Shown piece after piece: positions 21,427 through 22,707 of a stretch of 48,627 bases of DNA (position 1 is its first letter; the number at the start of each line of letters is the position of its first letter). A model generated the notes under the pieces. The model did no database searches. It was not told the DNA's origin and was given only the letters and a program-made list of their open reading frames with translations. The translations under genes and the position numbers were made by a program. Source of the DNA: Anaerolineales bacterium UBA3071 (GTDB taxonomy: Bacteria > Chloroflexota > Anaerolineae > UBA3071); the NCBI GenBank assembly GCA_002366755.1, contig DFBV01000018.1:15508-64134 (forward strand). The letters run 5' to 3'.

Positions 21427-22707
21427 CTATGTCTCATCGCCCAGGTAAAATGTCTGGCTTCGATCCCGGCCTACGGAGACGATGCGTATAGGAACTCCCA
21501 CGAAACCCTCGATAAAGTGTAGATAAGCTTGGGCCTGGGGAGGCAGATCGGCATGGCCGCGAGCTTCGGTGCAAGATGATTTCCATCCTTTCAGGATCTC
21601 ATACACCGGCTCGTATTCGACACAGCCTAAATCAGGTGGCAAATCAGTGTAGACTTGCTCTTTCCTCTTGTAGGCTACGCACACTTTGATCTCATCGAAG
21701 GCATCCAGAACATCCAGCTTTGTCAGTGCGATCGAAGAGATGGTGTTCAGTCTGACAGCATAGCGAAGGGTCACTAAATCGAGCCACCCCACGCGCAGGG
21801 GAATATCAGTCGTATGGCGAAACTCTTGGCCGAGCTCTACAAGGCTACTTCTCTCATCGCCGCTTACCTCGGTGGGCAAAGGACCTCGGGAAACCCGGGT
21901 TGAATATGCCTTAGCCACGCCGACTACCGCCGTAATCTTTGTGGGCCCTACCCCGGTGCCGATGCAGGCACTGCCGGCCAGGGTGTGAGACGACGTCACG
22001 TAAGGATAAAAGCCATAGACAAGATCTAATAACGTACCCTGTGCGCCCTCAAAAAGGACATGCTGGCCAGAGTCAATGGCCTTGTTGAGGAAAGATGCTG
22101 TATCAGTGATGCAACCGCTCAGAGTTTCCCGTATTTCGTCGTAGATTTCCTCCGAGTAGTAGAGCATACCGAGCATTCTCACCAACAGCCAGGCGGGCGT
22201 CAAACCCTGGCGAACTCGTGCCAGCATCCCTTCTTTCATAAAGTCAGGGTTGAGATACTCAAAGATGCGCACGCCTTGACGAGCCACGTGATCCACACGT
22301 GTGGGCCCAATCCCCCATCCGGTTGTGCCAATCGCGTATTGACCGGCTTCCTTCTCACACGCCTGATCGAGCCTGATATGATAAGGCATAGTGACGATGG
22401 CATTCCGTCCGATTAGAAGCCTCTTTACATCGAAACCATGGTTGTCGCGTAAGCGGTTAATCTCGCGAGTGAGGTTAAACGGTTCGATCATGACACCATC
22501 AGCCAGCACCAAGGTGATCCCCGGCCGCAATGCCCCCGACGGTACCAGAGAGAAACGGGTTTCCGTTCCGTCAACTACCACTGTGTGGCAGGCATTAACC
22601 CCACCCGAAAAGCGCGCTACAACATCGACCTGCGCTGCCATGAAATCAACGATCTTGCCTTTTCCCTCGTCTCCCCATTGCAATCCAATGATGACTGTAG
22701 TCGGCAT
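21427..22707 (-). CDS. Divergent adenylosuccinate synthetase (PurA) paralog
   Basis: GLQWGDEGKGKIVD P-loop, FEGAQGTLLD, YPYVTSS, KAYSTRV and LTKLDVLD are retained. The Asp-binding loop region reads RHTTDIPLRVGWLD instead of GATTGRRRRTGWLD (E. coli, from memory). Confidence 0.85.
   Translation of the reverse strand: MPTTVIIGLQWGDEGKGKIVDFMAAQVDVVARFSGGVNACHTVVVDGTETRFSLVPSGALRPGITLVLADGVMIEPFNLTREINRLRDNHGFDVKRLLIGRNAIVTMPYHIRLDQACEKEAGQYAIGTTGWGIGPTRVDHVARQGVRIFEYLNPDFMKEGMLARVRQGLTPAWLLVRMLGMLYYSEEIYDEIRETLSGCITDTASFLNKAIDSGQHVLFEGAQGTLLDLVYGFYPYVTSSHTLAGSACIGTGVGPTKITAVVGVAKAYSTRVSRGPLPTEVSGDERSSLVELGQEFRHTTDIPLRVGWLDLVTLRYAVRLNTISSIALTKLDVLDAFDEIKVCVAYKRKEQVYTDLPPDLGCVEYEPVYEILKGWKSSCTEARGHADLPPQAQAYLHFIEGFVGVPIRIVSVGRDRSQTFYLGDET

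Follow-up and report, generated by a model that had tools for sequence, protein, structure and literature searches.

Adenylosuccinate synthetase (AdSS), the product of purA, uses guanosine triphosphate (GTP), inosine monophosphate (IMP) and L-aspartate. PurZ of the Z-genome phages (NF038379; PDB 7odx) is a precedent for a relative of PurA with altered substrates, namely deoxyguanosine monophosphate (dGMP) and ATP instead of IMP and GTP. In Escherichia coli PurA the residue R303 touches the free aspartate as well as O2' of IMP, and in PurZ the equivalent of the PurA aspartate loop also contacts aspartate, with the tip of the contacting loop conserved and the use of aspartate kept (PMC8342488). 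Another relative, ToyG, is dedicated to the toyocamycin cluster and is paired there with the adenylosuccinate lyase ToyF (PMC6117005), which is consistent with the normal amination by aspartate followed by the lyase. Here we describe a PurA-like protein encoded on the minus strand, at positions 21427-22707, of a 48,627-nucleotide stretch of DNA from Anaerolineales bacterium UBA3071 (GenBank assembly GCA_002366755.1, contig DFBV01000018.1), referred to below as the window. The protein has the same fold and length as PurA (E. coli, PDB 1ade; PF00709, TIGR00184) and is about 45-50% identical to bacterial PurA. However, it belongs to a clade that has a rebuilt aspartate loop, has gained His299 and has changed G40 and R131, and its gene lies in a cassette of foreign composition devoted to an exported peptide. 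In PurZ it is the nucleotide substrates that changed, with aspartate retained; in this clade the GTP and IMP determinants are kept and the site of the third substrate is altered. In contrast to ToyG and ToyF, no adenylosuccinate lyase partner was found beside the PurA-like genes, and the aspartate site is lost. Since the defining aspartate site fails, the PurA-like protein should not be filed under EC 6.3.4.4.

The cassette also invites comparison with microcin C. MccF cleaves peptidyl- and aminoacyl-nucleotides, and it protects the producers of microcin C by removing the peptide or aspartate from the nucleotide (PMC8323819). As in the MccA/MccB/MccC/MccF system, one operon of the window brings together a ribosomal peptide with an enzyme that handles nucleotides, an exporter and an S66 peptidase of the MccF type. 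Microcin C production converts Asn to Asp-AMP (AMP, adenosine monophosphate), and four of the five precursors of the window type end in Asp. The differences are nevertheless clear: the microcin C precursor is a heptapeptide ending in Asn, whereas that of the window has about 75 residues, a graspetide leader and a C-terminal Asp; the exporter is an ATP-binding cassette (ABC) transporter; no ThiF domain of the MccB type was found in the six cassette proteins; and the bond expected from the PurA-like system would be between purine C6 and nitrogen, not a 5'-phosphoramidate. Clusters of the SAV_5884-type graspetides or graspimiditides (TIGR04186/TIGR04187) share with the window an MvdD-type ATP-grasp enzyme, a leader of the PFG(M/L) type and a core rich in Thr, Asp and Lys. 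They usually carry a PIMT-like methyltransferase. The window cluster is related to the SAV_5884 subfamily, yet it falls outside the curated models, and its partners are the PurA-like protein and the MccF-like peptidase. The chemical logic proposed below would be that of the agmatidine and lysidine synthetases TiaS and TilS, in which an oxo group of a nucleobase is activated by a nucleoside triphosphate before the amine of agmatine or lysine displaces it; these enzymes have unrelated folds, and their target is C2 of a tRNA cytidine, not C6 of IMP. A literature search revealed no paper that links adenylosuccinate synthetase or PurA-like proteins to graspetides or to other ribosomally synthesised, post-translationally modified peptides (RiPPs), the graspetide phylogenomics paper included. 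As far as we found, the PurA-like protein is thus a rare variant of a well-known enzyme that has apparently not been described.

Results

The GTP and IMP sites of PurA are retained

The open reading frame (ORF) at 21427-22707 codes for 426 residues and is covered end to end by PF00709 (475.5 bits, profile positions 1-415 of 416). The protein also passes the purA equivalog cut-offs of NF002223 (467.7 bits versus 402) and TIGR00184 (441.8 bits versus 395.55) and will therefore be labelled adenylosuccinate synthase by annotation pipelines. With the PurZ model NF038379 it scores 102.8 bits against a cut-off of 300, and its matches to PurZ structures in the PDB are weak (E = 7e-11). A tblastn search of the 48.6-kb window with canonical PurA returned this gene as the sole match, with no second purA.

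We aligned the protein with E. coli PurA (PDB 1ade) using HMMER; residue numbers given here are those of the E. coli enzyme. The P-loop QWGDEGKGKIVD (22645-22680, minus strand), which carries the catalytic base Asp13 and Lys16, is the same in both proteins, as are FEGAQGTLLD, YPYVTSS, KAYSTRV and the guanine-specificity motif TKLDVLD (21703-21723, minus strand) with Lys331 and Asp333. Thr128, Thr129, Arg143, Gln224, Val273 and Ser414 are also retained. The first-pass annotation of this DNA, made from the letters alone, had claimed that the GTP and IMP motifs are kept, and each motif that it quoted was borne out by the alignment. The same residues are conserved among the relatives described below. 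In an alignment of nine of them Asp13, Lys16, Asn38, His41, Thr129, Arg143, Gln224 and Asp333 are invariant, and most members of the clade keep Thr128 and Lys331. The features of the GTP site (the GDEGKGK P-loop, the (T)KLD motif and Ser414) are present in the window protein and near-invariant in the clade. The catalytic residues Asp13 and His41 and the IMP contacts Asn38, Thr128/129, Arg143 and Gln224 are likewise present, with the sole exception of protein P0270, where Arg143 is replaced by His. Since the P-loop, Asp13, His41, Asn38, Thr128/129, Arg143, Gln224 and TKLD are kept, GTP-dependent activation of IMP at O6 would be expected.

P0270 (locus L015, 240-1505) is the most divergent member of the clade. 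Besides the change of Arg143, a contact of the IMP phosphate, its P-loop reads QLGDEGKGK and its aspartate loop is shorter. This protein may have diverged further in function, or it may be degenerating.

The aspartate site is rebuilt

For the aspartate site, we compared the 11 relatives that carry the changes, column by column, with E. coli PurA and with 329 canonical PurA sequences. In the window protein, the E. coli loop GATTGRRRRTGWLD is replaced by RHTTDIPLRVGWLD (21778-21819, minus strand), with the substitutions G298R, A299H, G302D, R303I and R305L. The alignment of the loop is ungapped and is anchored on the invariant GWLD motif. R303 and R305 show 100% conservation among the 329 canonical sequences and are absent from 11/11 clade members. 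Further losses in the window protein concern G40C and G298R (both positions 100% conserved in canonical PurA), G302D (97%) and G274S (99%). The segment GGHNAGHT reads GGVNACHT (22582-22605, minus strand), in which Asn38 and His41 are kept and Gly40 is changed to Cys, and TTGRGIGP reads TTGWGIGP (22303-22326, minus strand), in which the IMP-binding Thr128 and Thr129 are kept and Arg131 is changed to Trp. Position 131 is R or K in most canonical enzymes, whereas clade members have W, M, V, S or A there. In sum, of the features of an L-aspartate site (Arg303, Arg305, Thr301, the loop with Gly298 and Gly302, and Arg or Lys at 131), the window protein has replaced Arg303, Arg305, Gly298, Gly302 and Arg131.

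These losses were set against the general divergence of the clade. In canonical PurA, conservation reaches 90% or more in 109 columns, of which 57 are kept by 11/11 clade members. Thirteen of the 109 are lost in at least 8 of the 11, namely G40, H53, G69, S100, Y137, K140, D231, T234, G274, G298, G302, R303 and R305; the losses in the aspartate loop exceed chance. The clade has also made gains of its own. Ser34 and Gln144 are present in 11/11 members, and Arg137 and His299 in 9/11, compared with 0% of canonical sequences; most members have acquired an acidic residue at 302 together with the His at 299; and a clade-specific segment, RQG(V/I)R..E(Y/F)(L/I)...FM, is conserved. The changed positions 137, 140, 231 and 234 probably belong to the dimer interface. 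The roles given to R131, R304 and R305 of E. coli PurA, and to K140 and D231 as positions of the dimer interface, come from mutagenesis work, reportedly that of Wang et al. in 1995 (cited in PMC8342488) and later studies.

That the aspartate-binding loop is rewritten, as the first-pass annotation had proposed, was confirmed by the alignment to 1ade: the aspartate contacts R303 and R305 are not conserved, and the readings GGVNACHT and TTGWGIGP are correct. The substitutions that it cited are not of equal value. R303I, R305L, G298R and G302D in the loop, as well as G40C and R131W, are informative, but H37V and R304P are ordinary variation. We rejected both as meaningful changes, the former because His37 varies freely in ordinary PurA and the latter because position 304 is Pro in most bacterial PurA.

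One PurA protein outside the clade also has an altered loop. P0254, encoded at L017, 8001-9281 (NCBI GCA_009733705.1), has the loop VTGTNVFRRCGWLD, in which R303 is replaced by Val. Its neighbours, a deoxynucleoside kinase and PolC, look like housekeeping genes. R303 by itself may be dispensable in some lineages.

The variant clade is small, old and under purifying selection

The first homology search retrieved an identical protein and 8 relatives with 50-76% identity, all with variant loops, and all lower matches were canonical. The protein of the window is also encoded on JGI 3300027742 Ga0209121_10000204. When 1.84 billion cluster representatives were searched exhaustively with a profile, one protein scored 727 bits and the canonical PurA that came next no more than 453 bits; a word-index profile search added only P0270. 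A clade-specific DNA pattern found a single locus, L010, in 185,579 genomes of GTDB; in a collection of metagenome contigs, which evidently does not include JGI contigs known to carry the gene, it found no match. The clade thus comprises 11 proteins, 10 of them from 5.8 billion protein clusters and one from a GTDB genome. The last of these comes from L010 (CAYZWV010000094.1), a contig of 4 kb whose bin is assigned to an uncultured Methanocellaceae archaeon, and at such a length the binning is doubtful.

In a neighbour-joining tree the 11 variants were monophyletic, with no canonical sequence among them, and the stem branch of the clade was about 6 times as long as the median internal branch. 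Identity between subgroups of the clade is just 45-50%. The ratio of nonsynonymous to synonymous substitution rates (dN/dS) was 0.11-0.24 among the clade pairs whose synonymous sites are unsaturated, indicating that these are working genes and not decaying copies. The clade is small, old and under purifying selection, and does not reflect the drift of a single gene.

A further PurA-like protein with a rewritten aspartate loop was found outside the clade, among representatives that otherwise look canonical. P0131, encoded at L016, 8001-9290 (NCBI GCA_041156705.1, JBFPEA010000549.1), has the loop PNWARHPHRCGWLD, in which both R303 and R305 are His, and it has Asn for R131. Its gene directly follows those of a 2054-residue nonribosomal peptide synthetase (NRPS) and a 71-residue ORF, and is followed by a purine 5'-nucleotidase gene (PF05761). 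With P0131, PurA chemistry may have been recruited to a peptide cluster a second time, independently. This protein suggests that the theme of the rewritten aspartate loop is wider than the 11-member clade, and that PurA-family ligases of this kind may have been taken up more broadly for linking purine nucleotides to amines of peptides.

The gene lies in a six-gene cassette for an exported peptide

The PurA-like gene is the fourth of six minus-strand genes that follow one another head to tail; the gaps between them measure 0-33 nucleotides except for a 123-nucleotide spacer with a hairpin between the first and the second gene. The first gene (25760-25987, TTG start) codes for a candidate graspetide precursor of about 75 residues, with the leader NWNGEEVPFGM...LDGHYDPDRQLFVNRNGTPIFG and the core CTYQKTCHRYLTGHGPPWQWDCEDDYYCD. 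It aligns with a 78-residue gene product at the same position in locus L004, whose leader is nearly identical and whose core is different. Relatives of the precursor in the protein collection were limited to 4 database proteins. The resulting family of five members, the window included, has the common leader NWNGEEVPFGM..LDGHYDPDRQLFVN.NGTPIFG and divergent cores, of which 4/5 end in Asp and each contains a single Lys. The match to TIGR04186, 'ATP-grasp-modified RiPP', is weak (18.1 bits versus a cut-off of 25).

A perfect 16-bp hairpin (25658-25692, minus strand) lies between the precursor and the ATP-grasp gene. The RNA of 25637-25762 (minus strand) folds with -56.9 kcal/mol (z = -6.3), and 0/200 shuffled sequences folded as well. 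The hairpin is likely an attenuator or partial terminator that would set the ratio of precursor to enzyme. An Rfam scan of the window gave no match, and a scan of the operon for promoter and terminator consensus sequences gave nothing above the shuffled expectation.

The second gene (24584-25636) codes for an MvdD-type ATP-grasp peptide macrocyclase, with the pre-ATP-grasp domain PF21068 at 44 bits versus a cut-off of 27. It scores 269.4 bits with TIGR04187, under the cut-off of 350, and 210-219 bits with TIGR04184/5 (MvdD/MvdC). The enzyme adjoins a precursor with a conserved leader and a core in which Thr/Ser/Lys and Asp/Glu abound, as in a graspetide cluster. The start of the third gene (22741-24582) abuts the stop codon of the second. 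Its product is a 613-residue ABC exporter with fused permease and ATPase (PF00005; matches to MsbA and to bacteriocin-exporter families), which is 33% identical over the full length to the exporter beside the PurA-like gene in L003 and 25% identical to that of L001. These domain matches, together with the precursor family and its conserved leader, bear out the first-pass description of the cassette as a RiPP-like operon.

Downstream of the PurA-like gene, a 968-residue protein (18502-21408) is a fusion of three parts, HAD phosphatase, APH-type kinase and ANT(6)-type nucleotidyltransferase (PF13419/PF00702, PF01636, PF04439); its HAD part weakly matches 5'-nucleotidase families. As this gene is absent from the otherwise syntenic L004 cluster, we regard it as accessory. 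The last gene (17502-18500) codes for a serine peptidase of family S66 and of the same type as MccF, the immunity peptidase of microcin C (PF02016, PF17676). Its best matches among solved structures are MccF of Bacillus anthracis (155.8 bits) and of E. coli (129.6 bits), with the murein enzyme LdcA at 81.5 bits. The predicted catalytic motifs, Ser (GHSD), Glu and His, align with those of MccF, and a Tyr aligns as an aromatic residue with the Trp of B. anthracis MccF that we presume to be Trp180. The cassette is compositionally foreign: the G+C content at third codon positions is 0.58-0.67, compared with 0.75-0.85 in the flanking MacB/HlyD and other genes.

Other clade members also lie in peptide loci

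The order precursor, ATP-grasp, ABC exporter, PurA-like and S66 is found in the window, L004 and L006. In L004, where the PurA-like enzyme is 75% identical to that of the window, the cassette occupies the same chromosomal position and lacks the fusion gene. The contig of P0005 carries an unidentified gene followed by the PurA-like and S66 genes, while in L015 the PurA-like gene precedes the ATP-grasp gene, a different order. A second type of neighbourhood, in L003/L002 and L010, consists of MauE, a redoxin, a Cys-rich peptide of 86-90 residues and the PurA-like gene. The PurA-like gene of L003 and that of a signal peptidase (S26) overlap, with an ABC exporter following, and in L007 an S26 peptidase adjoins the PurA-like gene. 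In L001 the PurA-like gene lies about 7 kb from that of a LanB-like dehydratase, with three genes between. Every informative neighbourhood of the clade is an exported-peptide locus.

Other features of the window

Immediately downstream of the cassette, 10242-17501 (minus strand) is occupied by a MacB-type ABC system with an HlyD-like adaptor, consisting of two ATPase genes and a 999-residue FtsX/MacB permease, all of host-like composition. On the other side, 26387-39439 (minus strand) codes for four lipoprotein-like proteins of 857-917 residues with two SBP_bac_1 solute-binding domains each. A radical SAM/SPASM gene (35634-36761) sits between two of them, and the first of the four is syntenic in L004, L011 and L012.

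Further along, a membrane-anchored redoxin (39958-40521, minus strand) is followed by a 105-residue ORF (39560-39877) with a signal peptide and a C-terminus rich in Cys and Trp. A redoxin paired with a Cys-rich secreted peptide is likewise found around the PurA-like gene in L003 and L010; none of the ORFs at 39560-40521 is PurA-like. A second ORF with a signal peptide (44112-44600, minus strand) has the Cys-rich C-terminus ...CWWRLVNGGPPEVWCYYCCNHPDCLPYNCCDLFCE and may code for a secreted disulfide-rich peptide. Two features resemble mobile elements. An ORF at 8611-9291 (minus strand) contains a Cas12f1-like TNB domain (TnpB-type, 85.8 bits) and is probably a remnant of the IS200/IS605 type. 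A 569-residue transposase-like ORF (41644-43353, plus strand), which has no Pfam match and is overlapped by an antisense ORF of 588 residues, lies within a second stretch of lower G+C content at about 39-43 kb.

Discussion

We consider it likely that the PurA-like protein is a neofunctionalised member of the PurA family that serves peptide gene clusters, and not a housekeeping enzyme. What it makes can be suggested with less assurance. It is a real though uncertain prospect that it makes 6-phosphoryl-IMP, from which an amine other than aspartate, probably on a peptide, would displace the phosphate to give an N6-linked peptide-AMP, with the MccF-like peptidase conferring immunity. In such a scheme the enzyme would bind GTP and IMP and move the gamma-phosphate onto O6 of IMP, as is suggested by the retention of the full set of catalytic, GTP-binding and IMP-binding residues. 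L-Aspartate would no longer be the nucleophile: with Arg303, Arg305 and Arg131 now hydrophobic or neutral, the site for its two carboxylates appears to be gone. Another amine would then displace the phosphate, and to judge from the context its likeliest donor would be the precursor, after macrocyclisation by the ATP-grasp enzyme, through either the single Lys of the core or the free N-terminus. The product would be a peptide joined through nitrogen to C6 of AMP, with a predicted mass shift of +330.04 Da, or +250.07 Da once the 5'-phosphate is removed. It would be exported by the ABC transporter, and the MccF-type peptidase, by homology with MccF of microcin C, would shield the producer by cleaving peptide- or aminoacyl-nucleotides. 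In a more speculative final step, the fusion of HAD, kinase and nucleotidyltransferase domains might process the nucleotide part further or add to immunity. The first-pass annotation had argued that the 6-phosphoryl chemistry is kept while the amine nucleophile is changed. The core of this argument is supported by our comparison, even though H37V and R304P drop out as evidence for it; whether the nucleophile would be a peptide amine, a Lys side chain or another amino acid is something we infer from gene context.

Several observations weigh against this proposal. The nucleophile cannot be read from gene context. The PurA-like protein is of the same size as PurA and has no extra domain for binding a peptide or leader. 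No target residue is demonstrably common to all associated peptides: Cys was rejected as a common nucleophile because the cores of L004 and P0355 lack it, the occurrence of one Lys per core in n=5 to 7 peptides is statistically not meaningful, and the precursor family is too small for a conserved target residue to be identified. The clade has gained arginines as well as lost them (R137 in 9/11 members, R298 and R275 in some), and these might conceivably form part of an aspartate site built anew. An enzyme may also tolerate the loss of just R303, since P0254, which stands in a housekeeping context, lacks R303 and keeps R305. As for the neighbourhoods, several clade contigs are short, that of L001 holds transposases, so that the association may be fortuitous, and the S66 gene is confined to one subgroup, while MccF homologues are common as stand-alone genes.

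The absence of an additional peptide-binding domain would fit a second reading, in which the chemistry is the same and the nucleophile is a free amine of small size, be it ammonia, a diamine or another amino acid. The free N6-substituted AMP would then be a separate co-product, or would later be joined to the peptide, for instance by the ATP-grasp enzyme onto the C-terminal Asp; linkage to this carboxylate would create an Asp-amide bond of the kind that MccF cleaves. We regard this as unlikely, but it finds support at several points: the C-terminal Asp in 4/5 precursors of the window group (group A), the ATP-grasp ligase adjacent to the PurA-like gene in two gene orders, the ability of MccF-type enzymes to cut bonds between an Asp or Glu carbonyl and a nitrogen attached to nucleotides, and the 5'-nucleotidase gene after that of the NRPS-linked P0131, which suggests products at the nucleoside level. 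However, in the loci with MauE, redoxin and the Cys-rich peptide the PurA-like protein is, on the DNA at hand, the sole ligase, and the minimal cassette of L004 has no gene for making an unusual amine. It is also conceivable, if improbable on present evidence, that no ligation takes place and that the protein is a GTP/IMP sensor, a regulator or chaperone of the exporter, or a mere GTP hydrolase. The loss of the aspartate half-site beside intact nucleotide sites would fit this, as would the co-occurrence of a related ABC exporter in two subgroups and the changes at the presumed dimer-interface positions Y137, K140, D231 and T234. Nevertheless, purifying selection has held Asp13 (the base), His41 (the acid) and Gln224 strictly constant, for which a mere binder would have no need, and His299 is conserved as a new feature of the reaction centre.

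The remaining explanations would leave the protein an aspartate-using enzyme. Resistant duplicates of a target are a known pattern within biosynthetic clusters, and on this model the product of the cassette, or what processing makes of it, would inhibit AdSS at the aspartate site, with the PurA-like protein as an insensitive AdSS that uses aspartate by way of a rebuilt pocket. The otherwise intact active site, the new arginines at 137, 298 and 275 and the scores above the purA equivalog cut-offs agree with this idea, which we nonetheless think decidedly improbable. All 329 canonical enzymes have R303 and R305, which 0/11 clade members retain; their replacements are variable and mostly hydrophobic, and the loop gains an acidic residue, the opposite of what a site for a dicarboxylate needs. 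Moreover, three unrelated classes of peptide would each need to have PurA as their target. Least probable by far is that drift has altered an ordinary housekeeping purA, or that the loop differences are artefacts of alignment. High family scores and automated pipelines do call the protein adenylosuccinate synthase, but the alignment of the loop is ungapped and anchored by the invariant GWLD, the changes are common to a monophyletic clade, and the gene is of foreign composition and lies within a tight peptide operon.

We return to the reading in which 6-phosphoryl-IMP is kept as the intermediate and a peptide amine takes the place of aspartate. The cassette context makes a new peptide-nucleotide chemistry plausible, and, to judge from the residues kept and lost, the PurA-like protein probably attaches a purine nucleotide to something besides aspartate, which would be an undescribed modification of peptides. 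It is possible, and we say this tentatively, that the clade represents the first 'purinylation' of ribosomal peptides, in which a PurA-derived, GTP-using ligase would join C6 of IMP to a peptide amine. If so, it would be a second and chemically distinct route to peptide-nucleotide products of the Trojan-horse type, combined with immunity of the MccF type. The five- or six-gene cassette and the simple mass-shift readout make a direct test of this hypothesis easy.

For metabolic reconstruction, the consequence lies in the scores: since the clade proteins exceed the purA equivalog thresholds, genomes that carry them would be wrongly credited with the adenylosuccinate step. If the PurA-like protein does attach an IMP-derived purine nucleotide to an amine, it would bring to RiPP biosynthesis a new post-translational modification and a new class of enzyme, a programmable C6-N ligase for N6-substituted adenine nucleotides, and with it a new family of peptide-nucleotide compounds, possibly antimetabolites that resemble adenylosuccinate.

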